Origin: a virus
Lineage: Duplodnaviria; Heunggongvirae; Uroviricota; Caudoviricetes
Reading direction: 5' to 3' (one strand)
Length of the DNA stretch: 43,998 nt
IMG/VR virus record: IMGVR_UViG_2671180473_000007
The notes under the pieces were generated by a model, which was not told the origin of the DNA, searched no databases, and saw only the letters and a list, made by a program, of their open reading frames with translations. Each line of letters opens with the position of its first letter. The first letter of the stretch is position 1. Below, in pieces: positions 6,486-34,392 of this stretch. Both the position numbers and the translations under genes were made by a program.

Positions 6486-6740
6486 TTACATCATGGTACT
6501 GTCAGTTCCGGGCTGAGCCGGGTCTGGTTGCTCTGGCTGCGCGTCGGTTTTCGGCTCATTATCAGCATCACTGGCCGCAACTGCTGGCCCAATAAGTTTT
6601 GCCAGCACTTCATCAACGTAAGTGTCGATTTGTGCCTCAAAATCCTTGCGGACCTGCGCTTTCAGCAACTTATTTACTTCACCGGAATACAGTGCCTGTT
6701 TTACCAGGTCTTCAGTGACGGTGCCTTTAATTTCTGGCAT
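6486..6740 (-). CDS. Hypothetical small acidic protein (84 aa)
   Basis: ATG preceded by perfect AGGAGG at 7-nt spacing; acidic, Pro/Asp/Glu-rich C-terminus. Confidence 0.55.
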   Translation of the reverse strand: MPEIKGTVTEDLVKQALYSGEVNKLLKAQVRKDFEAQIDTYVDEVLAKLIGPAVAASDADNEPKTDAQPEQPDPAQPGTDSTMM

Positions 6741-6775: not shown

Positions 6776-6958
6776 TCAGGGCTGGGTCGGGTCTTTTGGG
6801 AGCGGAGTTACCTGCGCTGTTTTACTGAGTTTTTCAGCTGCTGCGTCCTCAATTTTGCGGCGAACATAATTTCTGATGGCCTTATAACCACCACTCACCA
6901 GATATAACGCACATACTGCCGTGCAGAAATACAATAAAATAAGCTGTAAAAATGTCAT
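6776..6958 (-). CDS. Hypothetical small membrane protein (60 aa, one N-terminal TM helix)
   Basis: ORF track 6776..6970 trimmed to ATG at 6958 (GGGAGGG upstream): MTFLQLILLYFCTAVCALYLVSGGYKAIRNYVRRK, hydrophobic helix then basic region. Confidence 0.55.
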   Translation of the reverse strand: MTFLQLILLYFCTAVCALYLVSGGYKAIRNYVRRKIEDAAAEKLSKTAQVTPLPKDPTQP

Positions 6959-7054
6959 TATCCCTCCCAATTATTGACATGGTGTTGACACCGGTAATAT
7001 CTGTTAGGTAAAAAGGTGCACTGCATTTTTTGCTTTGGATATAACGATCTTTTT

Positions 7055-7102: not shown

Positions 7103-9157
7103 TTACGCGTTATTCACTTCCACCACGATACTGTCAATCAGTACCGGGTAAGTCGCATTTTTAGTGATATCGGTCACGCGCAACTTGTCTGCCGTAAACG
7201 TGCCGACCGGAGACTGCGACAGCATGAATGGTGTCCCGTCCTTACCATCAATGACCGGCGTCACCTCAATACTGTTGTTACCGGCAAAACGGAAGCCCAG
7301 CGTATGCCATTCGTTATTAAATGCGCCGAATGACCCCAGCTTCGTGTTCTGCGCCGTGTTTCCTTTGTGATACATCACGTTAAGGTCTGTGGCATCGCTC
7401 TGTACGTAGAACGATGCCAGCAGGTTATGACCGGCATTTCCTTCCAGAGTAACCCCTTGCGGCAGGGCAGAAACCGGCCAGTACAGCGCCAGTGCGTACT
7501 GATTAGCCGTAAGCGCGCCATCGAGTTTAAAACGACAACTGACAAGACCACCTTTACCCAGCAGGTCCGCACCATTACCAGCATCATGCTCAAGGTACCA
7601 GGGGGCTCTTCCTGTTTCCTTGGTCAGTTTCATTGCCTTACCCCCGCTGGCTCCGGCATCATCCACGATTTGAGCCTTGCCACCTCCGGCAGCCCAACCC
7701 TGTGGTGTCAACCGTCCTTCAGACTCAGATGCCCGGTAAGCAAATAGCGTACTCATCGTCGTGGTGTCTGCGGGTGGCGTGGACGGTTTTGATGGTGTAT
7801 CAGGTGACGGCTTCTCATCCGGTGGTGTCACGGTCTGCCCACGCATCAGTTCAGCCGTGCGCCCTGCATGGAGCATAATAGCTGAGGCCAGACGGTCTGA
7901 AATGACGCCCCTGCGTGCCCATGAGCTGAAATGGCTGTCACGCTGTGTCGAAACAAAACTGCCCTGGGTTCGGGATGCTGCACCGTAATACCCGACAGCC
8001 ACAATATCCGGGTCTTCCGCCGGAGCATTCGTTGGCGTGCTCTGTCCATTCTCATCCGTCAGGAACGGTACAAAGAAAATTTTCTGTGCTTCCTTGCCTT
8101 TGTAGCCACCGTATACTGCCTCATATTTATCGGTGCCAGCGTTTTTCCAGTAATACGTGGTATCACCGCAAATCCACGGCACCGTGGTGGCATTTCCACT
8201 CACGCACTGCGCAGCAAGCGGAGCCAGGTCAGTTCTGAACTGCTGAACCATGGCCGTGAATAAACTATTATGCTGCTGGCTTCCTGAGGCAAGGTCTGCC
8301 TCTCCCTGCATCCAGACCACAGCCAGAAGTTTGTTTTTCGGGTTTTTCGCCAGCGCGACTTTGGTGCGGCTTACCAGGTCCTGATACAGAGGTTTACCGG
8401 CCCCCCAGCGTGAAGAATCAGCGGAAGCACCGCTGGCCTCACTGAATGAGCCGTCGGCTCCAGTGGTGAATGCTGACCCGCCACGACAACAGGGCACCAG
8501 AAGTATCCCGGCATTCTGTGGGATATAGGGAAGCAGTTTTTTGGCAATATGCAACCCCTGACCGACAGTCCCGTACTGGCCTTTTGCCAGATCAGCTTTC
8601 GGGTGGTTTATCCCGCTCATATCCTGAACATCATGCAGGCAGTGGTCTGCCGGAATGATGTCGTTGTATGTACACGACGTACCGTTGGGCGTTACCGTAC
8701 TGCGGCGTGCCAGTTGCTTAATGCGTGGGTCCGGGCGGTCAAACGAATCCGGTAACGGCAGCCCCTCGCCGTAGGCCATGCCATTTGACTGACCCGCGAG
8801 AATGACAACAAAGTAATATTCCGGCTCTGAACTGCTGCCATTCGTGCTACCGGAAGGCCCGGCGTTATCCGGTGCATTCCAGTCGGAGGGCGTGAGCGTT
8901 CCGGCCACGTCAGATGTGATTGGAATGATGCCAGTCACGCCTGAACTGGTGATTTCTGCACTGGGATTACCGGATACCGGCATTACCCATAATGGCTCTT
9001 TCGTGCTGAAGCGGATCACGCAGTCTGCGAAGGTGATCCCCCCTTTATTACCCGAAGGGCGGAAAGGGCTTTCAATAAATGCCACCGTGCCACCGGCAAC
9101 CTTGACTGAAAACTCTCCGGGCATGGCGGAGAGCATTTTCCACTTGGAGTCTGACAT
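7103..9157 (-). CDS. SASA/SGNH-family carbohydrate esterase (prophage NanS-p-like sialate O-acetylesterase candidate) with C-terminal lectin-like domain
   Basis: 684-aa ORF; VILAGQSNGMAYGEG resembles the GQSNM catalytic block of sialate O-acetylesterase-type domains, with WMQGEAD and DHCLHD further on. Sits between gin and mom, where Mu has no gene. Confidence 0.6.
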   Translation of the reverse strand: MSDSKWKMLSAMPGEFSVKVAGGTVAFIESPFRPSGNKGGITFADCVIRFSTKEPLWVMPVSGNPSAEITSSGVTGIIPITSDVAGTLTPSDWNAPDNAGPSGSTNGSSSEPEYYFVVILAGQSNGMAYGEGLPLPDSFDRPDPRIKQLARRSTVTPNGTSCTYNDIIPADHCLHDVQDMSGINHPKADLAKGQYGTVGQGLHIAKKLLPYIPQNAGILLVPCCRGGSAFTTGADGSFSEASGASADSSRWGAGKPLYQDLVSRTKVALAKNPKNKLLAVVWMQGEADLASGSQQHNSLFTAMVQQFRTDLAPLAAQCVSGNATTVPWICGDTTYYWKNAGTDKYEAVYGGYKGKEAQKIFFVPFLTDENGQSTPTNAPAEDPDIVAVGYYGAASRTQGSFVSTQRDSHFSSWARRGVISDRLASAIMLHAGRTAELMRGQTVTPPDEKPSPDTPSKPSTPPADTTTMSTLFAYRASESEGRLTPQGWAAGGGKAQIVDDAGASGGKAMKLTKETGRAPWYLEHDAGNGADLLGKGGLVSCRFKLDGALTANQYALALYWPVSALPQGVTLEGNAGHNLLASFYVQSDATDLNVMYHKGNTAQNTKLGSFGAFNNEWHTLGFRFAGNNSIEVTPVIDGKDGTPFMLSQSPVGTFTADKLRVTDITKNATYPVLIDSIVVEVNNA

Positions 9158-9233: not shown

Positions 9234-9262
9234 AAAAAAGCGTCACGGTACTTTTGGTGACG
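9234..9262 (-). terminator. Rho-independent terminator at the 3' end of the invertase gene
   Basis: Stem cgtcac/gtgacg (9241-9246/9257-9262) overlapping the invertase stop, followed on the minus strand by a U6 run (plus-strand aaaaaa 9234-9239). Confidence 0.45.
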
Positions 9263-9815
9263 GAGCTGGTGAGGCAGGAAAATAACGATAAAGGGTGGAA
9301 AGGCCAATATCAAATATCAGTGCGATTTGTTTACGGGACTCGCCATTAGCCAGCAAACGGGCGATTTGCTCCCGCTCTTTCTCTGTCAGTTTCTGAGGTC
9401 TGCCGCCATGACGCCCCTGAGCACGGGCAGCAGCAAGACCCGCGCGTGTACGTTCAATAATGAGTTCCCGCTCCATTTCCGCCAGCGCGCCCATTATATG
9501 GAAAAAGAAACGTCCCATGGGAGTGGATGTATCAATATTGTCCGTAATGCTGCGGAAGTTAACGCCGCGTTGCCGGAGTTCTTCTGTTAAAAGGACAAGG
9601 TGCTGCATACTGCGTCCAAGGCGATCCAGTTTCCAGACCAGCAGGGTATCCCCTGGCCGGAGTCGCTTTAATGCGCGTTTAAGTCCGGGACGCTCCCTTG
9701 TCTTACCGCTTATTCTGTCTTCGAAAAACAGCTCACATCCTGCACATTCCAGCGCATTTCTTTGTAGCGCCGTATTCTGGTCATTTGTTGACACCCTGAT
9801 ATACCCAATCAGCAT
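9243..9815 (-). CDS. gin: Serine-recombinase DNA invertase (Gin/Pin/Cin/Hin family)
   Basis: 190-aa ORF MLIGYIRVSTNDQNTALQRNALECAGCELFFEDRISGKTRERPGLKRALKRLRPGDTLLVWKLDRLGRSM..., near-colinear with Mu Gin as I recall it; adjacent to a gix-like site and the invertible segment. Confidence 0.93.
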   Translation of the reverse strand: MLIGYIRVSTNDQNTALQRNALECAGCELFFEDRISGKTRERPGLKRALKRLRPGDTLLVWKLDRLGRSMQHLVLLTEELRQRGVNFRSITDNIDTSTPMGRFFFHIMGALAEMERELIIERTRAGLAAARAQGRHGGRPQKLTEKEREQIARLLANGESRKQIALIFDIGLSTLYRYFPASPAPSPKVP

Positions 9816-9880
9816 ACGATTTCCTTATTATAAAAAGCCGGAATTGTCGCATGAGGAATAAAACAGAGTTAATCCTGGCT

Positions 9881-9906
9881 TTCCTGAAAACCTCGGTTTA
9901 CGGGAA
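9881..9906. other. gix-like recombination site (left crossover site of invertible segment)
   Basis: TTCCTGAAAACCTCGGTTTACGGGAA: 26-bp imperfect dyad closely resembling the Gin/Hin-family crossover-site consensus; 66 bp from the invertase start. Confidence 0.7.
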
Positions 9907-10018
9907 ACGGTAAACAGGGCGGCGAATGCTCTGCCATCGGACGGCACCGCCGTTGCCGCGAATAGACTCGCCACCCCAAGAAATATTAATGGGGTTCCCT
10001 TTGACGGGACGCAGGACA
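9894..10018 (+). repeat. Inverted repeat, left copy (~125 bp)
   Basis: Near-identical to the reverse complement of 11087-11211 with one divergent central patch; encodes ...[24 protein letters not shown]...[12 protein letters not shown] in both copies. Confidence 0.85.
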
Positions 10019-10254
10019 TAAACATCACTTCTGGTATAACACAGCAGGATGCGGATTCCCGATATATCCAGGATATCAGGCTGGGAGCAGAGAACAGGCA
10101 GGTAATGTACGGTGGGGCATATTACTCTGCGTACGGTAATGTTATGGCAGGCCTGCAGATTGACAGTAAAGTTGATGCTTCAAACGATTTTATAGCATTC
10201 AGACCCCTGCAAAAATTAGTCGGAGGTACATGGATTACGGTATCTCAGTTATAA
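9894..10254 (+). other. Silent alternative tail-fibre C-terminal cassette (Sv'-like), promoterless in current orientation
   Basis: Plus-strand frame continuing from the inverted repeat: ...[89 protein letters not shown], stop at 10252-10254; no start codon of its own. Confidence 0.7.
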
Positions 10255-10305
10255 ATAGTCAGTAAATAATATATTTTAAAACAGATTTATTTCCAGGAGG
10301 ATTTT

Positions 10306-10827
10306 ATGGAACTAAAAAATATAACCCGTTATTATCCTGAAAATATGCCATATGGTAATAATGTTCAGTATTTCCAGAGTGAAGATGGTAAGGATTTCTA
10401 CGAATCCCTGCCATTATTCACCAAAAAATATAAACTTTGCATAACACCTGACAGCGGCGTTATCTGCTCAATATCACAGGACGCCTCGGCGCTGTATCCT
10501 GCGGGGTTTTCTGTGGTTGAGGTCGATGAACTCCCTGAAGGCACGGATATTTCAGGAAACTGGAAGTTTGATAATGGCATAATCTCCCGTATTCCGGTTA
10601 ACTACGCAAGAAAACTGGAAGCAATGCGCCAGTCATATCTTAATCAGGCATATGAAAAAATTAATGACTGGAGAACGGAGCTACAACTGGGCACCATCAG
10701 CGATGAAGACAGAGCAGCACTTACCCAATGGATGGCATACATCAGTCAGGTGAAGAAAATGGAACTACCCGCCATTAAAACAGAAGCTGAATTTAACGCC
10801 ATTAAATGGCCTGAGCAGCCACAGTAA
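10306..10827 (+). CDS. Tail fibre assembly protein (U'/Tfa-like) inside the invertible segment
   Basis: 173-aa ORF with AGGAGG RBS; C-terminus ...EAEFNAIKWPEQPQ typical of Tfa chaperones; follows the Sv' cassette on the same strand. Confidence 0.75.
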   Translation: MELKNITRYYPENMPYGNNVQYFQSEDGKDFYESLPLFTKKYKLCITPDSGVICSISQDASALYPAGFSVVEVDELPEGTDISGNWKFDNGIISRIPVNYARKLEAMRQSYLNQAYEKINDWRTELQLGTISDEDRAALTQWMAYISQVKKMELPAIKTEAEFNAIKWPEQPQ

Positions 10828-10831
10828 TAAA

Positions 10832-10849
10832 GAAGGCCGGAAGGCCTTC
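10832..10849. terminator. Bidirectional terminator hairpin between convergent tfa and tail-fibre genes
   Basis: Stem gaaggcc/ggccttc with ggaa loop, flanked by A/T-rich tracts on both sides. Confidence 0.5.
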
Positions 10850-10858
10850 TGAATATCA

Positions 10859-11740
10859 TTATATACTTGCAGCCGTCACCCATGCTCCATTTAACAGATA
10901 CTGCAACGGCCGGTAATACACGCCGCCGACGTTATCTGCCGTATTCTTACCGACATCCTGTACTTTAATTCCGGTAAGAACATTGCCGCCCCCCAGATTC
11001 AGATCCCAGCTTTCCCATGTTCCGGGCATATGTGCGGTCACCGACCCCAGTCTTATGGCGGTTACTGTTCCTGATGAGATAGTGATATCCTGCGTCCCGT
11101 CAAAGGGAACACCATTAATTGTGTGGGCATTTGCCAGCCTGTTCGCGGCAACGGCGGTGCCGTCCGATGGCAGGGCATTCGCCGCCCTGTTTACCGTTTC
11201 CCGTAAACCGACGTTATCGATAAAAGCCCCTTTATCCGGAATGTCTGCGCCGTTCTGCTCCCTGCGCAGGTAACGGTTATCACCTTCGCTTTTGCTGTAA
11301 ACATCCAGATTATTACGGGCGGTTCCCTTATTCTCCAGGTCGGCGAGATTCTGATCCTTCGCCAGGGCATTAACGTCAGCGGGACCAAGACTGTTTTTTG
11401 TGGCAAGCGTCCCCAGACCAAGATAACCACGGGCCAGACGCTGGGCCTCCGCACCGGCATCAGCAATTTCTTTCAGGTTATTTTTCCGGGAAAAGGCATT
11501 CGCAGCGATAATGGCTTTAATGGACAGCGTAAGCTGGTTTAACTGCGCCTTATCCGGCTGAATACTGGCTTCAGCCAGAATATTCAGCAGTTCGGCCTGG
11601 AGAATATTCAGCCAGTCCTGACCAATCCAGCTGATACCTTTTTGTCCGTCACCTTCGGTAAACCAGGTGGTGGTATTACTCTGCGCCGGTGCCAGCGCAG
11701 GCATATTCGCCACGCCGGAATTATTATCAACATGAAACAT
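10859..11740 (-). CDS. Tail fibre protein (S-like): constant N-terminal part plus currently expressed variable C-terminus
   Basis: 293-aa ORF; residues ~177-218 are encoded by the right inverted repeat and the last ~75 aa lie inside the invertible segment; start overlaps the upstream baseplate gene stop (TAATG). Confidence 0.85.
11087..11211 (-). repeat. Inverted repeat, right copy (~125 bp)
   Basis: Reverse complement of 9894-10018 with a few mismatches. Confidence 0.85.
11198..11223. other. gix-like recombination site (right crossover site)
   Basis: TTCCCGTAAACCGACGTTATCGATAA, 26-bp imperfect dyad related to the left site, at the outer edge of the right inverted repeat. Confidence 0.65.
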
Positions 11741-12300
11741 TAAATAGTCTCCTCTTCATGGCTGTTTGCATAAACGTAAATAAACGTCTGCCATGCAGGC
11801 TTATAACGGTTCAGAATACATTCCAGCGCACCGCCTTCATAAATACGCAGCGGCGTGAGAATATCATCCAGCACATTCATATTCCGGTAGCCGGTTTCAC
11901 TGTTAATCGTGACAATACTGACCCACTGCGAATCCGGTGAGGGCTGAATGTCAATCTGATAACCAAACTCCGCCGCAAACCGGATATAAAATTCACGGTT
12001 CAGCGAGGGCTTCATCCGGTATTTATTTCCGGCATAACGCTGTCGCTCCGTGAGGGTGGCTCCGGCCATATCACACTCGGGAAGCCCGAGATAACGCTCC
12101 CAGTCTTCCAGCAGCAGGCGCGACGTGTCAGGGAAACGCTCGGCAAGCAGCTGTTTACCCGTCCAGGATACACGCGCTGTCGAATGACTGAGGCCCAGAC
12201 ATAATGATGCCAGTACGGATGACGGACGCTTGTCCCATGCCAGCCCGTCAGGCAGTAACTGCAACAGGGCGCGCTGATGCGGGGTCAGGGTTACAGCCAT
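11740..12300 (-). CDS. Baseplate/tail protein (Mu gp48-like)
   Basis: 186-aa ORF immediately upstream of the tail fibre gene, as in Mu; assignment by position. Confidence 0.6.
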
Positions 12301-13373
12301 GTGATTTCTCCTACCGTCAGCAGCTCACTGTCTCCCGCCTGAACTGACGTCAGCGGACTGCGCACTTCAAAATCCTCCAGATTTTTCACCCCTGCCACCG
12401 CCCGCCAGAAAGACGACGGCAGAACCAGACCGCCGGGCCGGGATTCGTTATACAACAGGTCGGTCAGCGCCTGTTTTACGGCCGCCTGATTCTCCGGTGT
12501 TTTCGGGATGATCCTGATGCTGAAGGGCACCGGCTTATTGGTCAGTTTAAACACGGTCACCGTCGGCCCCAGAGGCTGTCCGACAGGCTGGCCGGTCGCC
12601 GGATCATCATGACTGCGGATATAATCCGCCACCCGCTGAACATCACCGTCACCGGGGAAAATATCCGGGTTATTATCCTGAACAAACGTTACCCCCACGC
12701 TGCCCGCCTGCGGCCATTCCGGGCGGCACCATGCCCGCGTCACGCCCGGCACTTCACGCGCCCAGCGTTCAAAATCATACTGCGTGCCGCCGGACGGTGG
12801 ATTCTGCACCCGGAAAACCAGACGGGAAAGCAGCTCCGGCACGGTTTCCACATCCGCACCACCGGTGATCCCCGTTCCGGTCACCGTGGCCGTCTGGTTG
12901 ATCCCCGCCTGCGGTGTGATAAATGTCAGTTTTGTCCCTGCCGGGGCATTCCCCGCACGACCGGCACTTTCGGCTTCCACACTGACATTCAGCGTACCGG
13001 CCTTACCGGTCAGGGAGGTGGTGATACGGTAAACCACGCCATCACTTCGCTGGAGAAGCACACCTTCCTTGATCCCCGCATCCGTGGTCAGCATCAGCTG
13101 AACCGGCCCGTCCCCCCGAGAGGCAGGCTTACGCATGACGCCCCAGAATGCACAGTGTTTCAGCAGTTCGGCTTCATCGGCTTCGGTCGGGATGATCTGA
13201 CGCGCAATCCAGGCCAGATGCTCATGCTCCTGAGCAGATAACCCTGCCTGAGCGTAAGCAATGGCATTCAGGGTGGTTTCATTCACACCCGGCTGCGAGC
13301 CGGGCAGGCGCTGGCTGATATCCTGCTGTGTCTGCGTGATTAACTGTGCCAGCGGTAAAGGCTGATAAGGCAT
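12291..13373 (-). CDS. Baseplate J-like protein (Mu gp47-like)
   Basis: 360-aa ORF in the baseplate gene block; assignment by size and position. Confidence 0.65.
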   Translation of the reverse strand: MPYQPLPLAQLITQTQQDISQRLPGSQPGVNETTLNAIAYAQAGLSAQEHEHLAWIARQIIPTEADEAELLKHCAFWGVMRKPASRGDGPVQLMLTTDAGIKEGVLLQRSDGVVYRITTSLTGKAGTLNVSVEAESAGRAGNAPAGTKLTFITPQAGINQTATVTGTGITGGADVETVPELLSRLVFRVQNPPSGGTQYDFERWAREVPGVTRAWCRPEWPQAGSVGVTFVQDNNPDIFPGDGDVQRVADYIRSHDDPATGQPVGQPLGPTVTVFKLTNKPVPFSIRIIPKTPENQAAVKQALTDLLYNESRPGGLVLPSSFWRAVAGVKNLEDFEVRSPLTSVQAGDSELLTVGEITWL

Positions 13374-14417: not shown

Positions 14418-15531
14418 AGCTGATCCCCTGTTTTTTCATCTGCTGGCGAATAAAGGCATCAACATCGTCACCGGAACCACCCCGGCCCTTACTGTCCGGC
14501 TCTGCCGGAACGATAAAGCCGTCACGCGGTGCCAGTACCAGCCGGGTGACTTCCCCGTTATGTTCATCAAGTAAAAACTCCACCTGACAGACCAGCAGTT
14601 CAGTCTGTTCTATACCGAAACGCAGGGCTGAAACACCGGTCAGCAGATTGACATCCCATAACCGGCCATCATCCCGGAACCAGCCACGCACGGTGGCAGA
14701 AAACCGTTCTGAACGGGCAATCGCACGGCGCATTTCACGCAGGGCACGCTGCCGTGCACCGGTGGTGTCTGTCTGTTGATCGGCGAGGATGATTTTCGAC
14801 CGGTAGCGGCCGATCTGCTCATCACTGATGACGCCCACAGGTGCTGCCAGACGGGCGGCGGATTCGCTGTCTCCCCGTTTGCCACCACCGCGCCCGTGTC
14901 CCCGGACACGGTATTCGCTGTATCGTCCTCGCCAGTCCGTGTTGTAATCGGCATCAAGCAGGTTATCTCCCAGCACCAGTCTGTCCGTCTGCTGGCTTCC
15001 TGCCTGGGTGAACACCAGATCGCCGTCAGCATTACTGGTCACCAGCACCCCGCGATGCCGGGCAGCACGGGTCAGCGCATCCGCCACGGTTTCTGAGTTT
15101 TCCAGCGTAAAAGAGCTGAAGGGGCGTGCAGCCGTGTCGTCGTTAACCTGCCAGCGCACGGCTATCCCGAAGGGCGCACATAAATCTGCGGCAATCTGTG
15201 CCAGCGTCCGGTTGCGCCACTGGCTGCCGGGATGGATGGCGGCACAGTCCACCAGGTCGCCGGTTTTATCCCGACCGCTGATGCTGATCTGATGACGGGT
15301 TGCACTGATCCGCTGACTGACCTGATCCAGCCAGCCACTGATGACCGTCTGCCCGTTAATTCTGAGCGTCAGGGACTGACCGGTTCGCAGGGCTGAGGGG
15401 ATGCGCTCACCGGGCAGCATCAGCCCCAGTTCAAACGACCCGGCCAGATGCTCCAGCGAGCGACGGACGCTGACCGTCAGCCAGCCGGAAAAAATACTGC
15501 CACCGATATACAGTTCAATCCTGCTGCTCAC
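14407..15531 (-). CDS. Baseplate hub protein (Mu gp44/P-like)
   Basis: 374-aa ORF downstream of the N-like gene; assignment by size and position. Confidence 0.6.
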   Translation of the reverse strand: MSSRIELYIGGSIFSGWLTVSVRRSLEHLAGSFELGLMLPGERIPSALRTGQSLTLRINGQTVISGWLDQVSQRISATRHQISISGRDKTGDLVDCAAIHPGSQWRNRTLAQIAADLCAPFGIAVRWQVNDDTAARPFSSFTLENSETVADALTRAARHRGVLVTSNADGDLVFTQAGSQQTDRLVLGDNLLDADYNTDWRGRYSEYRVRGHGRGGGKRGDSESAARLAAPVGVISDEQIGRYRSKIILADQQTDTTGARQRALREMRRAIARSERFSATVRGWFRDDGRLWDVNLLTGVSALRFGIEQTELLVCQVEFLLDEHNGEVTRLVLAPRDGFIVPAEPDSKGRGGSGDDVDAFIRQQMKKQGISFDE

Positions 15532-16873
15532 TGATCACCTCCACGCTGCGGCCACCCGGAACAAAAACCGGATCGGGGATATTGTTTCTGCGGACAAAAT
15601 ACTGCCAGCGACTGCTGTTGCCGGTGGCACGGTACAGCGTGACCAGTGCCGGTTCGGTGGTGCGAACCATGACCTGAAAAGCACCGGGAAGATGCACGCT
15701 CCGTGTGGTTAAATCTTCTGTCAGCGCAAGCCCTGCATCACGTAATGCAAGGGCAGTCCCGGTATAGCCCTGTGCGGACAGATCCAGCACCTGTTGTTCC
15801 ATGGCATCGCTCAAATCCCGGTTGATACGCTGCACATCAGCAGAACTTTCCAGCCAGGCCAGTCCGCCCGAACGGTCAGTATCCTGAACGTGCGTCGTAT
15901 TCTGCCGGATGACCTGATCCAGCAGTTTTCCGAGCGTCTGTGCCTGCGACACCAGGGTTGCACTCTGCATCACGCTCCGCAGCAGACGGATATTTTTCTG
16001 TGCCGCAGGCGTCAGGCCAATCAGGCGCTGTGGATCATCCTGTTCGCTGAGGGTGTAACGCAGGGAGGAAAGTGTGCGGTACAGCTGCGGCATGGCCTGC
16101 TCTGCCATGCTGTCACGGTTTGTGGTCAGGCTGCCGGACGGCGTTCCGGCTTTTCCGGTCAGAGACAGGGAAGGATCGCCGGGCAGCCCGGTCAGCACGG
16201 CAAACATTCCGGCCAGCGATTCAGCCATGCGACGGGGCGCATTAATCAGGGCGGCGGCATTGCCTTTCAGGGCAGTAAAACTGGCCGTAAAGGCACTGAT
16301 ATCCTGCACAATCCCCATCCCCGAAACGGCATTCTCCAGTGCATCAATCTTATCGCTGATGGTGTCGGTCATGGCCTGTACATCATGCAGACCGTCTGAA
16401 ATCACCGTCCAGCCGTCTGAAAGCGTGTTAAACAGCTGATTCATTGCTGAGCCGCTTTTCTGCTCCAGCGCAGCTGCCGTATCTTCTGCCACCGCAGGGG
16501 CGGTATCGTCACTGGCGGGGATCACGTTGATCGTGAACTCAACCGTTCCCTGCTCGCTGGCGTTATAACGGCTTTCAAAGCTGTTTATCAGCACGTTTAA
16601 CGTGCCGTAATCCGGGTGCATCAGTTCACCGGCACCGGGTGCACGCAGCGCATCACGCAGGCGGCTTCGCTGTGTCTGAAGATCGTCTCCGGTCACCAGA
16701 ACCGTGAATGTGAACTCCGGGAGTTTTGGCCCCAGATCATCCGCACCGCCGCTTTCACGCAGTGGGTATTCACGGCGCACAATGTTACGTCCGCCCCGTT
16801 CCCGCTGCTCCTGATAAACCAGGAACGGTACGCCACGAAAGGAGCCACGCCCCGGCGTGTCAGTAGAGGCCAT
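15515..16873 (-). CDS. DNA circularisation protein (Mu gp43/N-like)
   Basis: 452-aa ORF directly downstream of the tape measure gene; assignment by size and position. Confidence 0.6.
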   Translation of the reverse strand: MASTDTPGRGSFRGVPFLVYQEQRERGGRNIVRREYPLRESGGADDLGPKLPEFTFTVLVTGDDLQTQRSRLRDALRAPGAGELMHPDYGTLNVLINSFESRYNASEQGTVEFTINVIPASDDTAPAVAEDTAAALEQKSGSAMNQLFNTLSDGWTVISDGLHDVQAMTDTISDKIDALENAVSGMGIVQDISAFTASFTALKGNAAALINAPRRMAESLAGMFAVLTGLPGDPSLSLTGKAGTPSGSLTTNRDSMAEQAMPQLYRTLSSLRYTLSEQDDPQRLIGLTPAAQKNIRLLRSVMQSATLVSQAQTLGKLLDQVIRQNTTHVQDTDRSGGLAWLESSADVQRINRDLSDAMEQQVLDLSAQGYTGTALALRDAGLALTEDLTTRSVHLPGAFQVMVRTTEPALVTLYRATGNSSRWQYFVRRNNIPDPVFVPGGRSVEVISEQQD

Positions 16874-18917
16874 AGTTCCCTCCGTTCCAGACGTTCACAT
16901 CCAGGCCATGCTGTGCGGTATCATCCACATCAATACTGCGCGCCCGCCAGCCTTCAGGGGCAACAAGCTCCACCCGTGCGGCGGTTTTCGCGGTGGCCTG
17001 TCCGCCGTTTTCGTCACTGCCGCCACGCAGTTTCTGCCAGGCCTGCGTCAGCCAGCCCCCCAGATAATCACCGAGATAGCTGCCCACCGTGGAACCAATG
17101 GCAACCCCGACCGGACCGGCAGCCGCCCCCAGCGCGCCACCGGCGATACTTCCGGCAAGGGAACCCACGGCACCGGCTTTATCGGCTGCACTGGCGCTGC
17201 TGTCCAGCAGTACAGGAGCCGCCATGGCACCGGCCCACAGGGCACCACCACCCAGCCGACCGGCACCACGGAACAGCCCGGCAAAACGCCCCAGCCCCAT
17301 GCGGTTTCCGGCCGCCGTTAGCAGACCACCGGCACGGCTCATCATACGACCGAAGAAGCCCTGTTTACCGGCACTCTCCGCCAGTTGCTCACCGGCAGTC
17401 ACGACGGTCGTGACACCCCGTCCACGTCCGGGGCCGCGTTTTTTACGGCCGCGCACGGTTTTGCCGTCACCGCTGACCACCACATCCCCGCCACCTGAGG
17501 CCAGGCCACCCGCAGGCCAATTGGTGACCAGCACGGGCTGAACGGCAGCCGGATTTACCCCGGTAAGGAAATTCAGGAACCGGCCAGCGCGTCCGGGCTG
17601 CGTTCCCGGTACAGTGGTCTGCGGTTTGCGGAAGGGCGACGTCAGCACGGAGGTCATCGCCATGCCATAGCGTAAGGGGGTTGCGCCGAGACGTAATGCC
17701 CCCGTCCCCGCAAACCTGAGCACCTTCAGCGCACGGGAGGCGAGATACATATACATCAGGTACTTTGCGGCGGTCTGCGCACCCTGACCAATGCGATCCA
17801 GCGCATCGCCATAACCGGCGTCGCGCAGTGCCTGAAGCGTTTCCCTGACTTTCTGAATGACCCGGTAAAAGCCGGTCGCAGCGTCTCTGGCATACTCAAA
17901 TCCCTGATTCAGGGCTGAGGCCGTCTGTGTGGCCAGCTTATCCTGTAAGCCGCTTTTCTGTGCCGCATCAGCATAATCCAGAAAGCCTTTCAGGCTCTTT
18001 TTCAGGCTGTCAAACGGTCCCTTTGCCATCACCTCGCGGGCAAATCCGTCCCAGACATCGCCCATCATGGACGTCATTCCCGTCCAGGAATTCATGGCGT
18101 TTTTCTGGGCACCTTTTGCCTGTTCGGCCATCACCTGAAATAACAGGCGAATGCTGTCCGGTCCCAGTTTTCCTTTCTCGCCTTTCTCACGGATGATCTT
18201 CTGGTTTACACCCAGCTTATCGGCCAGCAACTGGTAAACGTTAATCCCGTATCCGGTCAGAATATTGGCGTCCGCTGCCTGGATACTCTGGCGGGCAAAC
18301 ATCTGTTTGAGTTGCAGGGACGCACCCTGTGCATCTGACAGTGACCAGCCGTGATAGCCGCCCTGATCCTGAAGCATGGTAATAAAGCGACGGGCTTCCC
18401 TGTCACTCATACCGAACCCGCGACTGGAGGCGTATTCCTGCATAACCCCCGCCAGCCCCCAGGTGGTGTCTTTGGCGTTCTGTACCGCCCAGGCTTTCAC
18501 TGCTTCCGTTTTTGCCGTATCGCCATGATTAATGGCGTTGAGACGCAGAATATAGTTCTCCATCTCTGCGGCCGGGCGGATAAAGGCTTTATTAAACCCG
18601 TAGACCGCAGCCCCTCCCGCCAGCATCCCGTAAAGGTTGCTTATCCGCCCGATGGTGCCGGTAATGCTGCCCTGAAGGCGGTCAAAATCTGACGTCACCG
18701 TGCGGATACTGCCACGAACACCGGCAAGCGTTCGCTGCATACGGGAGCCGACAAGTTCTGTCTCCTGACCGGCACGACGTGCTGCATTTCCAAGACCACC
18801 CAGCCCCGTCCTGCCGGAACGGGAGAATGCCCCCAGCTCCTGTGACCACTGGCGGGATTTGGCAGAAATATTGCCGAGTAAATCGACAATCAGGGAGGCT
18901 TTCAGGTTTTTTGCCAT
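16860..18917 (-). CDS. Tail tape measure protein
   Basis: 685-aa ORF, Gly/Ala-rich C-terminal third, located between the tail chaperone and baseplate genes. Confidence 0.75.
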   Translation of the reverse strand: MAKNLKASLIVDLLGNISAKSRQWSQELGAFSRSGRTGLGGLGNAARRAGQETELVGSRMQRTLAGVRGSIRTVTSDFDRLQGSITGTIGRISNLYGMLAGGAAVYGFNKAFIRPAAEMENYILRLNAINHGDTAKTEAVKAWAVQNAKDTTWGLAGVMQEYASSRGFGMSDREARRFITMLQDQGGYHGWSLSDAQGASLQLKQMFARQSIQAADANILTGYGINVYQLLADKLGVNQKIIREKGEKGKLGPDSIRLLFQVMAEQAKGAQKNAMNSWTGMTSMMGDVWDGFAREVMAKGPFDSLKKSLKGFLDYADAAQKSGLQDKLATQTASALNQGFEYARDAATGFYRVIQKVRETLQALRDAGYGDALDRIGQGAQTAAKYLMYMYLASRALKVLRFAGTGALRLGATPLRYGMAMTSVLTSPFRKPQTTVPGTQPGRAGRFLNFLTGVNPAAVQPVLVTNWPAGGLASGGGDVVVSGDGKTVRGRKKRGPGRGRGVTTVVTAGEQLAESAGKQGFFGRMMSRAGGLLTAAGNRMGLGRFAGLFRGAGRLGGGALWAGAMAAPVLLDSSASAADKAGAVGSLAGSIAGGALGAAAGPVGVAIGSTVGSYLGDYLGGWLTQAWQKLRGGSDENGGQATAKTAARVELVAPEGWRARSIDVDDTAQHGLDVNVWNGGNYGLY

Positions 18918-18920
18918 GGG

Positions 18921-19115
18921 TTACTGCTTCGTTCTGAGAATTTTTTCGGTCTGTCGGCAGTGCCGGTAAAGCTGCGATAAGGGGAGGTTAAGCGCCCACT
19001 CCGGGCCGCTTTTTGTCACCATCCCCAGCACAATTGCGGCTTCTTCAATCTGATCCCGGCACTGCATCTGGTCGCCCCCGTTCAGCGACCAGCTTTCCGG
19101 CCATCGCGGAATCAA
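18921..19115 (-). CDS. Small ORF overlapping the tail chaperone 3' end (possible frameshift extension)
   Basis: 64-aa ORF overlapping 19045..19521 by 71 nt in another frame, in the position where tailed phages often encode a frameshifted chaperone extension. Confidence 0.3.
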   Translation of the reverse strand: MIPRWPESWSLNGGDQMQCRDQIEEAAIVLGMVTKSGPEWALNLPLSQLYRHCRQTEKILRTKQ

Positions 19116-19521
19116 GCAGGCTTACTGCCGCCATCAGTCGGGAGAGATCGCGCTCGCTGAGCTGTCCTATCTGACGCGGAGACAATGGCCCCTCAATCTG
19201 GCCGACAGCGGCAATCTGACGGCGCAGCAGCGCAATGCCGCGCAGTGCCGGTGAGGCCACAAGAACCGGACCGTTTCGGGTTTCCATAAGACGCTCGGCC
19301 TCGCTCTCCGCATCAATGCTGTCTTTTGCCGTCAGTTCGCGGAAGGTGACGCGGTATTCACGGGATTCCCCGAACGGCAGACCGTCGAGCAGATCCACAT
19401 AGCCGTTCGCCAGTTGTTCAGCCAGCCCGGCGGTGCGGGGATCGCCGTCTTCAAGTGCATCCCGGATAGCCTCCATCACGGCCTCGTCAGAAACCGCCGT
19501 TTTTTTCTTACGTGTGCTCAT
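19045..19521 (-). CDS. Putative tail assembly chaperone (Mu gp41-like)
   Basis: 158-aa acidic protein between tail tube and tape measure genes. Confidence 0.5.
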   Translation of the reverse strand: MSTRKKKTAVSDEAVMEAIRDALEDGDPRTAGLAEQLANGYVDLLDGLPFGESREYRVTFRELTAKDSIDAESEAERLMETRNGPVLVASPALRGIALLRRQIAAVGQIEGPLSPRQIGQLSERDLSRLMAAVSLLDSAMAGKLVAERGRPDAVPGSD

Positions 19522-19535
19522 TACATTTTTCCTGA

Positions 19536-19901
19536 TTACTGGACACGGGTACTGGTGGCGCTGGCGAACTTCGCGGAGATATCACCACCACCGTCAAGCG
19601 AGGCCGGTTCACTGCTCCAGGCCTTCGTCATCATGTGGACTTCACCGGTATCGGCCACGAACTCAATCGTGACCGCAGTCCAGGTGTTGATTTCATCGGC
19701 AGCCGGTGAACCTTCTCCGCCCGCCGGGAATTTACAGTCCAGCGTCGCCTCACGGGGTTTCTCGCGATAGCCGTAAACTTTCGCGCCTTTCACCACTTCA
19801 CGCTCAAAGCCGGACGGGGAGAACGTGGCCCCCTCAAGGGTGTCGTACTCCTGCCCGTTCACACGGATGGTGGCCGTGCCCTGATACTGTTTTCCGCTCA
19901 T
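19536..19901 (-). CDS. Tail tube protein
   Basis: 121-aa ORF immediately downstream of the sheath gene. Confidence 0.7.
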   Translation of the reverse strand: MSGKQYQGTATIRVNGQEYDTLEGATFSPSGFEREVVKGAKVYGYREKPREATLDCKFPAGGEGSPAADEINTWTAVTIEFVADTGEVHMMTKAWSSEPASLDGGGDISAKFASATSTRVQ

Positions 19902-19909
19902 GCCTTACC

Positions 19910-21412
19910 TCACAAAATGAAACGGATCTGCGCGGCCATGAAGCGGAACTGGTTAACCAGATCCGGTGTACACATCACATCCAGACGGTTACGGTCTTTT
20001 GTGTTGCGCTCCACGAGCAGATTCTTTTTAAAGGTGTCCAGATTTTCGACCAGTCCCAGATCCACCCATTCTTCCCCCAGCGAAATTAACTGAAGTTTCA
20101 TGATCTCCGGTGTCACGATATTCTGACCGGCACGAACGGGCGTCCCGTCATCAGCCAGTTTATGGCGCGGAAAACGCTGCGTGATAAAGGTGCGCAGGGA
20201 ATAACGCAGATATGACAGGGTGTAGATGGTTTCCACATCCAGATAGCTGGGATCGATTTCGCCGTATGCATTCTGACGGTACATCGTCACCTGACGTTCA
20301 ATCTGCACCACATCCGCGGCCGCGACGGTCACCGTGGACATGCCGGTATAAAGCAGGCTGTTTCGCTCTTCCCGCGTCAGACGATCCGGTGCTTCAGGTG
20401 CCATACGGGCAGGCAGCGCCAGTGTCTGTAATGGTCGGGCCGGATCCGTTGACAGGGAGGGCGCACAGACCGCACAAATGGAGGCAGCCCAGACATAATC
20501 CGGCTCTGGTGCTTTAGGAATAGAAGTGCAGGTAAACAGGAAGTCATTACGGGATTCACCAAAACTGGTTGCCGTACCGAAGGTGCCGGTATGCGCCATC
20601 CAGACCATACCGTCCGACATTTTTACCGGTCCCCAGCGTTTCAGCAGTTCATCCGCCAGAATTTTGAGATTTGCCGCATCCTTATAGGGCATGACGATGT
20701 AGTTGTACTGACGATTCCCCATCCCTGAGACGCTACGGGTGATATCGGGGTTTGTTGCCTTCTGTGTTGGCGCGACGAGCTCCAGCGTAAGACCGGCCGG
20801 TGTAGTTTCACCGTCATAATAGTTCACCCGTAAATCATGAGCTGAGCATTCACCGATAAAGCGGGCGTTAACCCCCATGCTGCCTTTAAGTCCTTCAGCA
20901 TTATCACCACTGACTTCAGCTGCGATAGCAGTGAATGGCGCATCAGTGTCAGCGTTAATGACCTTAGCCAGCTCTTCCACAAGCTCTTTACCTTTTTTCC
21001 CCTTACTGACGGGCAGGAGGTAACGGCGACCGCCGATGTAAACACTTAACACCCCGTCTGCCAATGCTGTTCCAATGATATTCATCACGCATGCCCTGGA
21101 CTGACCTGTTCCAGCCCCCTGTGCAATGGCATATAACTCTGTGTCAGGGTTAATGGCGATAAATTCCTCTACCATCAGTGCAATCATGGAACCTCGCCCC
21201 CAGAGTTCTCTTGCTTGTGAAGCTCGGGTAATACGTACTGGTACATCAAGCTGACCGCGCCCCTGAATGGTAGTGTCTTTCATTGCAGCCTGACCAAACA
21301 ACAGTACCGCCTGACGCTGTGGTGGAGTGCCGGTCACGGCCATTGAATTATTGATTTCAATCTGTACCAGCGGAATGCGATTGTTATCGCCGATATAATC
21401 AAAGTTAATCAT
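19910..21412 (-). CDS. Contractile tail sheath protein
   Basis: 500-aa ORF upstream of the tube gene; size and position as Mu L. Confidence 0.8.
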   Translation of the reverse strand: MINFDYIGDNNRIPLVQIEINNSMAVTGTPPQRQAVLLFGQAAMKDTTIQGRGQLDVPVRITRASQARELWGRGSMIALMVEEFIAINPDTELYAIAQGAGTGQSRACVMNIIGTALADGVLSVYIGGRRYLLPVSKGKKGKELVEELAKVINADTDAPFTAIAAEVSGDNAEGLKGSMGVNARFIGECSAHDLRVNYYDGETTPAGLTLELVAPTQKATNPDITRSVSGMGNRQYNYIVMPYKDAANLKILADELLKRWGPVKMSDGMVWMAHTGTFGTATSFGESRNDFLFTCTSIPKAPEPDYVWAASICAVCAPSLSTDPARPLQTLALPARMAPEAPDRLTREERNSLLYTGMSTVTVAAADVVQIERQVTMYRQNAYGEIDPSYLDVETIYTLSYLRYSLRTFITQRFPRHKLADDGTPVRAGQNIVTPEIMKLQLISLGEEWVDLGLVENLDTFKKNLLVERNTKDRNRLDVMCTPDLVNQFRFMAAQIRFIL

Positions 21413-21690
21413 CAGGACGTCCCCTTATCTGATGCTGCGGTTTTTTCAGCCACCGCCGCAGTTTTTTCTGCTACCGCTCCCGCTGGTTTTGCCGCCGCGC
21501 CGGTATTAGCAGTTGTGGCAGCCGGGGCAGGCTCCGCCGTTTTATCCACCACAATGACGTCGCCATCATTAAGACGGCGGCACCAGAACGGAGTGAAGGG
21601 TTTCTCTTCCCCGTCCTGAGAGAGCGGAGTCATCGTGTCGGGATCGCGGATCAGGCATCCCGGCGCAGGTTTAATAAAAATGGTTGTCAT
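21412..21690 (-). CDS. Small Ala-rich hypothetical protein
   Basis: 92-aa ORF with Ala-rich C-terminus, between head-completion and sheath genes. Confidence 0.5.
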   Translation of the reverse strand: MTTIFIKPAPGCLIRDPDTMTPLSQDGEEKPFTPFWCRRLNDGDVIVVDKTAEPAPAATTANTGAAAKPAGAVAEKTAAVAEKTAASDKGTS

Positions 21691-25804: not shown

Positions 25805-25925
25805 ATTGCCTCCGCATAAAGGATGAATATAAAATAAACAGGCGGTCAGTGTACGCTTAACTGGTAAAGTCGGTGCCTGCCTCCGGGTGGATCATGTATG
25901 CGGGTTCGACCCCCGCCACTGACCG

Positions 25926-33879: not shown

Positions 33880-34392
33880 TTAACGGGGGAATGATTTTTC
33901 ATACAGCCTGCAAACACGCTCATAACTCATCACTGCACGTTCCGACATATCCAGGGCTGCCAGCATTTTGCGGCGGTGCCAGCGTTTGAGACGCTCCAGC
34001 ACATCAGAGGCCAGCGCGGGTTGTTGCTCCAGCCACTGCCAGTTAGCCACACCTTCGCCGTCGTTCTGCGCGGCCGTCTGCGATTTCACCCAGCGGTTAA
34101 GGGCCGTTTCCCCGCCATCAGAGATAAATCCCTGCCGGTGCATCACTTTCCAGATGGCGCGAATTTTGGCGGTCACCGTACCCGGTTTTAAGGCCCGGTT
34201 AACCGGCTTCTGACGCACTTTAAAACCGCGTTTTTTGAAAACATCCAGCACGCGGGATAACTCACCGGGTGACATATCACGGCAACTGGATTTGCCGGTG
34301 GCTGCCAGCAGCGCGGATGTATAGGTATCATGGTCAAGCTGTAGATCGCGTTTTGCGACATGTATTAAGGTAATCAGGGAAGCGCGATTCAT
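33880..34392 (-). CDS. gemA: GemA-like regulatory protein (Mu gp16 family)
   Basis: 170-aa ORF immediately upstream of the Mor/C-family gene. Confidence 0.6.
   Translation of the reverse strand: MNRASLITLIHVAKRDLQLDHDTYTSALLAATGKSSCRDMSPGELSRVLDVFKKRGFKVRQKPVNRALKPGTVTAKIRAIWKVMHRQGFISDGGETALNRWVKSQTAAQNDGEGVANWQWLEQQPALASDVLERLKRWHRRKMLAALDMSERAVMSYERVCRLYEKSFPR

Follow-up and report, generated by a model that had tools for sequence, protein, structure and literature searches.

The closest described counterpart of the locus presented here is the G segment of bacteriophage Mu, a 3 kb stretch in the gene order gp47-gp48-S(Sc)|Sv ... Sv′|gin, with com/mom further on. In Mu, the variable parts of the fibre are about 330 aa long, two chaperone genes (U and U′) are arranged one per cassette (S-U / U′-S′), and inverted repeats of 34–41 nt include the whole 26 bp recombination site. 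The plasmid prophages P1 and P7 carry a 4-kb segment in which either orientation has its chaperones (U′, Ua/Ub), and their sites have a TT/AA core; the repeats of the P1 C segment are around 0.6 kb long, and in P7 a 198-nt, 87% identical inverted repeat starts at cix and encodes a shared stretch of the fibre. The P segment of e14 (PinE, E. coli K-12) and the segments of P2-like pro483 and Cartapus are compact (1.4–1.9 kb), with short fibre cassettes, 12-2-12 sites with a TT/AA core and, in those examined in detail, two convergent chaperone genes. Finally, Salmonella Hin/hix, compared here by description, involves the same recombinase subfamily and a like enhancer arrangement: the invertase gene carries Fis sites at its 5′ end, about 100 bp from the recombination site (PMC3798978). 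Hin moves a promoter, whereas the switch described below exchanges the 3′-terminal coding part of a gene.

Here we analyse a 43,998-nt stretch of viral DNA (IMG/VR record IMGVR_UViG_2671180473_000007; hereafter, the window), which contains an apparently intact, 38.6 kb Mu-like prophage of E. coli at about 4749–43381, its structural genes intact. We are highly confident that one region of this prophage is an invertible 'G segment', flipped by a Gin-like invertase at two inverted sites. The segment shares the gene order of Mu but spans 1.3 kb, with variable parts of about 120 aa, resembling in its compactness the segments of e14, pro483 and Cartapus, elements with another type of virion module. 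Unlike the P1 and P7 segments, it belongs to a transposable phage and, unlike in Mu, three extra genes (DUF6645/SASA, DUF1378 and DUF826) lie between its invertase and com/mom. The switch is an ordinary member of a well-known invertase family and involves no new mechanism.

Recombination sites, invertase and fibre cassettes

Two 26-bp sites face each other in inverted orientation, each consisting of two imperfectly inverted half-sites of 12 bp that flank a 2-bp core, with matching cores (TC/GA). Site L, on the invertase side, occupies 9881–9906 (TTCCTGAAAACC-TC-GGTTTACGGGAA, core TC at 9893–9894), and site R, on the fibre side, occupies 11198–11223 (12-2-12, TTCCCGTAAACC-GA-CGTTATCGATAA, core GA at 11210–11211). 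With a weight matrix built only from the half-sites of Mu gix, P7 cix and e14 pix, site L ranks first (25.3 bits) and site R second (22.7 bits) among the 26-mers of the entire 44-kb window, compared with a best score of 16.3 bits among 40 shuffles of the window. The sole other 26-mer scoring above the shuffles lies 23 kb away and has an incompatible GC core, and the same scan found no third recombination site, as in a multi-inversion, shufflon-like system, inside or near the segment. The preliminary description of this DNA had placed two gix-like sites at the outer edges of the repeats, at exactly these coordinates, and had proposed aligning them to the known sites; they do align with gix, cix and pix. 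The TC/GA core is that of Mu, as opposed to the TT/AA of P1, P7, e14, pro483 and Cartapus, and the inner half-site with the next 14 nt is nearly identical to that of Mu (GGTTTAC.GGAAACGGTAAACAGGGC). The outer half-sites of L and R, by contrast with the fully repeated site of Mu, differ from each other at 5 of 12 positions; an AAACG outer half-site like that of site R also occurs among the sites of the e14, pro483 and Cartapus group.

The invertase gene, correctly described earlier as adjacent to the switch, lies on the minus strand at 9243–9815, leaving a gap of 65 bp to site L. It encodes a 190-aa small serine recombinase (Pfam Resolvase, 1.6e-51; HTH_7, 4.9e-15) that shares 74% identity with Mu Gin in a gap-free alignment of 184 aa and 72–74% with the Cin proteins of P1 and P7, and that matches the Gin crystal structures PDB 4m6f (E 2.5e-88) and 3uj3 with E about 1e-88. 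The catalytic residues of serine recombinases, S9 and the D64/R65/R68 cluster, are kept in the alignment with Gin. In a numbering that, for Gin too, is one below that of Hin, the protein has Q150, R153, L154, K46, R47 and K50 at the positions corresponding to Fis/enhancer contacts. The Hin counterparts, Q151/R154/L155 and basic residues at 47/48/51, are conserved uniquely in Fis/enhancer-dependent invertases (PMC3798978).

The invertase gene also contains, near its start, a putative Fis-dependent recombinational enhancer (nt 19–86 of the gene; 9730–9797, minus strand), homologous to the stretch of P7 cin annotated 'enhancer', which likewise covers nt 19–86. Within it, two Fis-like 15-mers at 9780–9794 (GTGTCAACAAATGAC) and 9731–9745 (GTGCAGGATGTGAGC) are 49 bp apart, and the centre of the nearer one is about 106 bp away from the site L core; for hin, the enhancer-to-site distance is quoted as '~100 bp' (PMC3798978). 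Both 15-mers have the form G-N13-C and are conserved in gin, cin and pin; this conservation is confounded with constraint on the protein, since the coding stretch at this point (RVSTNDQ...) is the most conserved, and the strict Fis pattern GNNYRNNWNNYRNNC is matched by only one site. An alternative pair of Fis sites spaced by 48 bp, at gin nt 46 and 94, was dropped, since the P7 annotation puts the enhancer at nt 19–86.

As in Mu-type G segments, a constant 5′ part of the fibre gene lies outside the segment and two opposed, in-frame 3′ parts lie inside it. The constant part, Sc (codons 1–176/177 of S; 11212–11740, minus strand), is 47% identical to Mu S residues 1–191 and matches PDB 5yvq and 8ju3 (Mu tail fibre S) and phrog_1833 tail fiber protein. 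In the window orientation, the fibre open reading frame (10859–11740) runs from Sc into Sv(A) (10859–11211, minus strand), which comprises 47 conserved codons, a 69-aa tip and a stop codon. The silent alternative, Sv′(B) (9893–10254, plus strand), has no start codon and comprises 47 conserved codons, a 72-aa tip and a stop codon; after inversion, it joins Sc in frame to give a 296-aa fibre, annotated as WP_032184567.1 in flipped genomes. Public genomes carry annotations for the 293-aa product as well. The exchanged DNA, from GLRETV to the stop codon, encodes 116 and 119 residues, the first 47 near-identical, and the swap of a C-terminal ~75 aa proposed in the preliminary description is accurate for the part that changes, that is, for the divergent tips. 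The crossover falls at homologous S codons in the two phages, in the peptide GLRETVNRA of the window fibre and GLQETVNRA of Mu S. Tip A is 45–52% identical to the tips of P1, SfMu S′ and P2 H, and tip B about 42% identical to tips of P2-like gpH; all tips compared end in the C-terminal motif YYRP.Q...G.W.T..S.

The inverted repeats, initially described as ~125 bp long and as encoding the same fibre peptide, are real, and their arms lie at 9893–10034 and 11070–11211, both in frame with the fibre coding sequence and sharing the 47 conserved codons. Their extent, however, is about 150 nt, and they are imperfect, consisting of two blocks instead of a single one of ~125 nt: an 86-nt block, 93% identical (9886–9971/11133–11218), and a 50-nt block, 84% identical (9985–10034/11070–11119), separated by about 13 divergent nt. 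Identical runs inside the repeat reach 32 nt. The repeats do exceed those of Mu in length, as first noted, but this is no departure from the family: long repeats are not novel, as the P7 repeat at cix is a precedent, likewise encoding a shared fibre stretch. Beyond the core, the arms are 84% identical over 141 nt (47 codons), with dN of 0.08 and dS of 0.57. Concerted evolution of the arms was considered and rejected, as arms from the same genome (73–84% identical, varying among relatives) are no more alike than orthologous arms from different genomes (86–94%). These identities, together with the dS of 0.57, make conservation of the protein the best explanation for repeat length, and fit the view that the long repeats would be a by-product of conserved fibre coding sequence rather than a mechanistic feature. 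That the repeats are an assembly duplication or other artefact, an outcome named at the outset as one that would undo the switch, can be dismissed with near certainty: the same architecture occurs in 16 IMG/VR contigs and in complete genomes from more than 20 independent assemblies, and the arms are both in frame and diverged.

Precise inversion in natural E. coli

Both orientations are present in sequenced isolates. Complete E. coli genomes covering the locus at 80% or more comprise 20 in the orientation of the window (A) and 6 in the opposite one (B), and the IMG/VR contigs of the lineage comprise 12 and 4, respectively. In the cleanest pair, FORC_029 and NCCP 13983, 0 differences remain across a locus of 18,601 bp once the segment is flipped in silico at the cores. 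The exchange is limited to 19 bp, TCGGTTTACGGGAAACGGT, starting at the core dinucleotide, and does not involve a longer block of identity, 32 bp, that lies deeper in the repeat. With the segment flipped, the copies in DLI.5a and TOE17 differ at 1 position in 4,600 bp, located outside the segment, and comparison of the window with FORC_043 maps the exchange to 9893–9931. Flipping at the core dinucleotides in silico reproduces the flipped near-identical prophages exactly. These comparisons between genomes show that precise inversion at these sites has taken place repeatedly in natural E. coli, and the combination of exact inversion with an exchange within 19 bp of the core points to site-specific rather than homologous recombination. 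Together with the gix-like sites and a recombinase at 74% identity to Gin, the two orientations bear out the original proposal of a Gin-type invertible tail-fibre switch.

By homology with known serine invertases, dimers of the Gin-like protein would bind both inverted 26-bp sites and, on supercoiled DNA, assemble with the putative enhancer at the start of the invertase gene, bound by Fis; both sites would then be cut at the 2-bp core, half of the tetramer would rotate by 180 degrees and religation would leave 9895–11209 flipped. The same homology predicts dependence on negative supercoiling, cleavage with a 2-nt stagger and a 5′-phosphoserine link. In orientation A, Sc is fused to Sv(A) in the 293-aa fibre; in orientation B, it is fused in frame to Sv′(B), and tfa, the chaperone gene discussed below, would be co-transcribed behind it. 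A lysogen population would in this way release phage with two receptor-binding tips and hence two host ranges. We infer that this protein catalyses the inversion, that the reaction depends on Fis and that host range changes as a consequence.

A competing account of the inversions is RecA-dependent homologous recombination between the ~150-nt repeats, with the gix-like sites and the invertase as bystanders. The repeats are long enough for this in principle, given the 93% identity of the 86-nt block and the identical runs, and flipped copies with a disrupted invertase gene exist: in those of DLI.5a and TOE17, the gene has lost 1 nt from a run of T. The invertase encoded in cis may thus not be the catalyst in these copies; their state could be explained by the action in trans of a resident Pin-type invertase, by inversion before the frameshift arose or by a sequencing error. 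Nevertheless, we consider homologous recombination highly improbable as the source of the inversions. First, the FORC_029/NCCP 13983 exchange lies in the outermost 19 bp at the core and not in the longer identical block that homologous recombination would favour, and both DLI.5a/TOE17 and the window/FORC_043 pair fit only an exchange at the outer edge. Second, the outer half-sites, which lie outside the repeat, both still match the family consensus. Third, the invertase is under purifying selection (dN/dS 0.06–0.10). Both arms, tip A and tfa are also under purifying selection, in keeping with a G segment.

Site-specific inversion could also have been lost in this particular genome, leaving a frozen relic whose parts look intact. 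The window itself gives no sign of switching, and some relatives have decayed, their invertase frameshifted or deleted. Against this, the window encodes a full-length invertase identical to WP_000904914.1, the protein of FORC_029 and NCCP 13983, which differ only by the inversion; its sites are identical to those of flipped copies, and the structural genes of its prophage are intact. We therefore regard a relic as very unlikely and a working switch as the better account.

One chaperone gene in a segment with two fibre tips

The one-chaperone-per-cassette layout of Mu is absent from the segment, which has a single gene for tail-fibre assembly (a chaperone), tfa (10306–10827, plus strand; Pfam Caudo_TAP, 4.8e-19; phrog_136). 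This gene runs in the same direction as Sv′(B) and towards Sv(A), its product is 28–32% identical to Mu U and U′, and its dN/dS is 0.16–0.25. Between tfa and Sv(A) lies a G+C-rich, terminator-like hairpin (AGAAGGCC TTCC GGCCTTCT; 10831–10850), which could act as a terminator in either orientation. The presence of a chaperone beside one cassette only had escaped the preliminary description.

Two chaperone genes are found in Mu, P7, e14, pro483, Cartapus and Chris1. A single one, however, is also found in 8–9 of 33 other Gin-type segments surveyed (about a quarter), so two chaperones are typical of such segments but not strictly defining. Across this prophage lineage the single-chaperone layout is constant.

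One reading of this layout is an ON/OFF device, in which fibres would be assembled in orientation B alone, where tfa follows the fibre gene, and the fibre of orientation A would be unchaperoned and non-functional. The lone tfa is convergent with Sv(A), and the related tips of Mu S, P2 H and P1 S normally have a chaperone gene next to them. Further, a sigma-70-like consensus scan found no promoter-like site for tfa on its own strand upstream of the gene, in a background in which total sites were not above chance. Other observations speak for a functional tip A. Tip A retains 94–96% amino acid identity, with dN/dS of 0.07–0.09 at dS of about 0.47, across lineages in which tip B has been wholly replaced; A is the commoner state in both datasets (20:6 and 12:4); and variants fixed in A, without the invertase and Sv′(B), still have an intact tfa. 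The C-terminal motif shared by all tips also makes it plausible that one chaperone serves both. An ON/OFF device is therefore unlikely.

We tentatively propose instead, as a possibility falling short of an even chance, that the layout represents a functionally distinct version of the G segment. One Tfa would serve both tips (and, lineage-wide, many interchangeable ones) and would be expressed independently of orientation; or else tip A would fold without a chaperone. Tfa identity between lineages follows tip A and not the co-oriented tip B, and the spacer before tfa, which is not conserved between the window and its relatives, measures 51–120 bp, compared with 0–3 bp in Mu, P7 and e14. The long spacer and the tracking of tip A by Tfa, together with the purifying selection on tip A and the prevalence of orientation A, favour this functional variant. 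If it is correct, the rule of 'one tip, one cognate chaperone' that is assumed for fibres of the Mu, P1 and P2 type would not be obligatory; the biological question raised is how a two-tip switch manages on one chaperone gene.

Distribution of the prophage family

The prophage family is widespread in E. coli, with relatives in O157:H7 and other STEC strains. The window prophage is 99.06% identical to the copy in JE86-ST05, including a 2.6 kb stretch at 100%, and the flanks differ; tail genes that are frameshifted in the JE86-ST05 assembly are intact in the window. Copies of the prophage that are 99% identical occupy different chromosomal sites in different strains, indicating that the family was recently mobile. 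A literature search found no description of the switch of this prophage or of single-chaperone segments.

A widespread family of Mu-like prophages in E. coli thus carries what we infer to be a host-range switch, flipping on the timescale of strain divergence, which is relevant to host-range engineering with such fibres. The switch also has practical consequences for genome analysis. Annotation pipelines list the fibre as a hypothetical protein and take the silent cassette for a truncated pseudogene, and in strain comparisons the inversion appears as about 800 spurious mismatches.

Anatomy of the switch

The tail-fibre gene (10859-11740, minus strand, 293 aa), which comes after a baseplate J gene (12291-13373) and one for a Mu gp48-like protein (11740-12300), crosses the right-hand recombination site. 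A silent frame without a start codon (9883-10254, plus strand) begins at the left-hand site. It opens with the same peptide as the expressed fibre (38 letters) and diverges thereafter, in agreement with the preliminary description, which had the repeats encode one tail-fibre peptide. The adjacent invertase proposed there is a 190-aa protein with Resolvase and HTH_7 domains (9243-9815, minus strand), 65 bp from the left site. Downstream of the silent frame lies the tail-fibre assembly gene tfa (10306-10827, plus strand, 173 aa, Caudo_TAP), and a G+C-rich hairpin (10831-10850) sits between the convergent ends of tfa and the fibre gene. This region is very probably an active Gin-type site-specific inversion switch alternating two receptor-binding tips. 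It shares mechanism, gene order and site core with phage Mu, and the system belongs to a well-known kind; our literature search returned no paper on the switch of this prophage. Annotation pipelines do not recognise it: the silent cassette is labelled 'phage tail protein, incomplete', and the fibre receives only the name 'hypothetical protein'.

Two 26-bp gix-like sites had been placed at the outer edges of the inverted repeat, and we find them at the same coordinates, as 12-2-12 sequences inverted relative to each other with complementary cores: TTCCTGAAAACC-TC-GGTTTACGGGAA at 9881-9906 (left) and TTCCCGTAAACC-GA-CGTTATCGATAA at 11198-11223 (right). When the whole 43,998-bp window was scanned with a weight matrix built only from the half-sites of Mu gix, P7 cix and e14 pix, these two ranked first and second (25.3 and 22.7 bits), above the maximum of 16.3 bits in 40 window shuffles. 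Aligned from outer to inner half, the left site (TTCCTGAAAACC TC GGTTTACGGGAA) and the right site (TTATCGATAACG TC GGTTTACGGGAA) have a core identical to that of Mu gix (TTATCCAAAACC TC GGTTTACAGGAA), whereas P7 cixL (CAATCCTAAACC TT GGTTTAAGAGAA) and e14 pix (CTCTCGAAAACC TT GGTTTGGGAGAA) carry TT. Because the TC core supplies bases 2 and 3 of a codon for Leu or Val, the reading frame is kept across the fusion, and the fibre encoded after an in-silico flip has 296 aa. A third gix-like 26-mer, CACTTTAAAACC GC GTTTTTTGAAAA, occurs 23 kb away from the switch, within the early region (34216-34241). At 18.3 bits it scores just over the best of the 40 shuffles; as a GC core cannot recombine with TC/GA, a chance match or pseudo-site is the probable explanation.

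The inverted repeat, previously described as ~125 bp long, is present but imperfect and divided into two blocks, 9886-9971/11133-11218 (86 nt, 93% identity) and 9985-10034/11070-11119 (50 nt, 84%). Its length had been thought unusual by comparison with the Mu G segment; we see no departure from the family, as P7 has a 198-nt, 87% repeat starting from cix and a further 129-nt block, and the repeats of the P1 C segment are ~0.6 kb. Within single genomes of the lineage (the close relatives of this prophage) the arms are 73-84% identical, compared with 86-94% for orthologous arms of different genomes, and dS between the window's own arms is 0.57. Because arms within a genome are no closer than orthologous arms, the repeat is best read as conserved fibre coding sequence common to both cassettes, and it seems neither to be needed for recombination nor to result from homogenisation.

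Over an ungapped alignment of 184 residues, the recombinase shares 74% identity with Mu Gin. Its match to the sequences of the Gin crystal structures has an E-value of about 1e-88, and its identity to the Cin proteins of P7 and D6 and to invertases from a large number of P2-like phages is 72-79%. Residues 1-191 of the fibre share 47% identity with Mu S, and the crossover falls at a homologous peptide (FIQNLGLQETVNRA in Mu, the corresponding 14-residue stretch in the window). Inversion would be catalysed by this enzyme with the help of Fis: residues conserved only in Fis/enhancer-dependent invertases (PMC3798978) are all found in it (Q150, R153, L154, K46, R47 and K50). The cin enhancer annotated in the P7 record (nt 19-86 of cin) corresponds to 9730-9797, which aligns with gin, cin and pin without gaps and holds two G-N13-C 15-mers kept in all three (nt 22-36, GTGTCAACAAATGAC; nt 71-85, GTGCAGGATGTGAGC). 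The nearer of these Fis-like 15-mers is centred ~106 bp from the left-site core; about 100 bp is quoted for the enhancer-to-site distance in hin (PMC3798978). Since the putative enhancer also encodes the catalytic motif, DNA conservation alone is no proof of its function.

Inversion in natural genomes

Precise inversions at the cores have occurred naturally. First, we surveyed 5,426 complete E. coli genomes with a 2.6-kb query (coverage of at least 80%) and a synthetic version flipped at the cores: 20 genomes carry the window's orientation (A) and 6 match the flipped query (B). IMG/VR contigs of the lineage divide into 12 A and 4 B, and FORC_043 matches the window at 99% with the interior reversed. 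That the repeats or the segment are an assembly artefact has next to no probability beside these independent records of both arrangements.

Second, FORC_029 and NCCP 13983 differ at 819 positions over 18,601 bp, all between the sites, and at 0 positions once one is flipped in silico at the core dinucleotides. Arm-diagnostic differences confine this exchange to 19 bp, TCGGTTTACGGGAAACGGT, starting at the core. Homologous recombination between the repeats could also invert the segment, and a longer identical block of 32 bp, further inside the repeat, offers it a substrate; this block was passed over, as site-specific but not homologous recombination predicts, and we consider the homologous route very unlikely. 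Third, both DLI.5a and TOE17 have the element twice, once per orientation, and after a flip a DLI.5a copy differs from a TOE17 copy at 1 position in 4,600 bp, outside the segment.

Rearranged or deleted prophage copies (L096 and L097 in DLI.5a; L098 in TOE17) have lost 1 nt from a T5 run in their invertase gene (nt 310; window ~9506) and are present in both orientations. Another invertase acting in trans, a frameshift that arose after the inversion, or a sequencing error in the homopolymer could account for them; resident Pin-type invertases can stand in for each other.

Orientations are skewed ~3:1 in both surveys (20:6 and 12:4, counts that ignore strain relatedness) towards the arrangement with tfa antisense. 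If real, this skew may reveal which tip infects E. coli; switching tips would alter host range.

One chaperone gene, two tips

Mu, P7, e14, pro483, Cartapus and Chris1 have a chaperone gene behind each of their two cassettes, whereas the window and every lineage relative examined (80-100% identity) have one, the only true deviation of this switch from its kind. This sole tfa (10306-10827) runs in the direction of the silent cassette (9893-10254) and converges with the expressed one (10859-11211). No promoter-like site that could serve tfa turned up on the gene's own strand, and the spacer 5′ of it is 51 bp in the window and 80-120 bp in relatives, with no sequence conservation; Mu, P7 and e14 have 0-3 bp there. 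Such a layout could belong to an ON/OFF device in which orientation A is non-productive, a reading we regard as doubtful. Between lineages with a replaced tip B, tip A is 94-96% identical with dN/dS of 0.07-0.09 at dS ~0.47, as expected of functional coding sequence. Judged from these comparisons, Tfa identity follows tip A and not the co-oriented tip B: tip-A identities of 98.5%, 95% and 46% between lineages correspond to Tfa identities of 89%, 85% and 61%. Chaperones of this type bind the fibre through their N-terminal domain, and their C-terminal helices bring about trimerisation (PMC9608196).

In three relatives' loci (L004, L005 and L006) each sub-lineage has its own tip cassette in the silent slot (equivalent to 10036-10254), with 28-30% identity to that of the window, and one of these cassettes resembles the Mu S tip. 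Silent-slot tips have been replaced while the adjoining tfa and tip A were conserved, so tips are exchanged as modules. All tips of both slots, and Mu S and S', keep the C-terminal motif YYRP.Q...G.W.T..S.

Variants fixed in orientation A exist: E. coli M3 (L007) and M1, M18 and CI5, mouse strains, are missing the entire silent cassette together with most of the invertase gene (equivalent to 9310-10284) and retain tfa intact on the opposite strand. A switch likewise frozen as a relic in the window's own strain, where invertase and silent cassette are both in place, is unlikely.

Among 33 other Gin-type segments in IMG/VR, 21 have two chaperone genes, 9 have one, 1 has three and 2 have none; a more sensitive profile detected a second-gene remnant in 1 of the 9. 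With one-chaperone segments making up about a quarter of the survey, the layout is recurrent, not unique.

The host prophage

The prophage that harbours the switch is Mu-like, spans about 38.6 kb (~4749-43381) and appears to be complete, with Mu transposase A, a B-like ATPase, Gam and Mor, then lysis, head, tail and baseplate genes, followed by S, the invertible segment, the invertase and lastly com/mom. Unlike in Mu, the invertase is separated from com/mom by genes for a 684-aa SASA (sialate-O-acetylesterase-type) and DUF6645 protein (phrog_143; 7103-9157, minus strand) and small DUF1378 (6776-6970) and DUF826 (6486-6740) proteins, both also on the minus strand, a trio that may resemble the nanS-p esterase region of Stx phages.

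For the JE86-ST05 copy (L010), the PGAP annotation reports frameshifts in the genes for tape measure, sheath, tube and DNA circularisation (15515-21417); the matching window ORFs (15515-21412) are intact, at 452, 685, 121 and 500 aa. A PGAP 'tRNA-OTHER' at 25850-25929 in JE86-ST05 was not found in the window by ARAGORN. The two prophages are 99.06% identical and their flanks differ: the window's left flank carries smpB and the tmRNA gene ssrA (tag ANDENYALAA; 1013-2072), then a 229-base N run (2448-2676), and the JE86-ST05 insertion interrupts rhsC, that of FORC_029 a fimbrial usher gene. Two copies are present in some genomes. Near-identical (99%) prophages at different sites, sometimes in duplicate, indicate that the family transposed recently in the manner of Mu.
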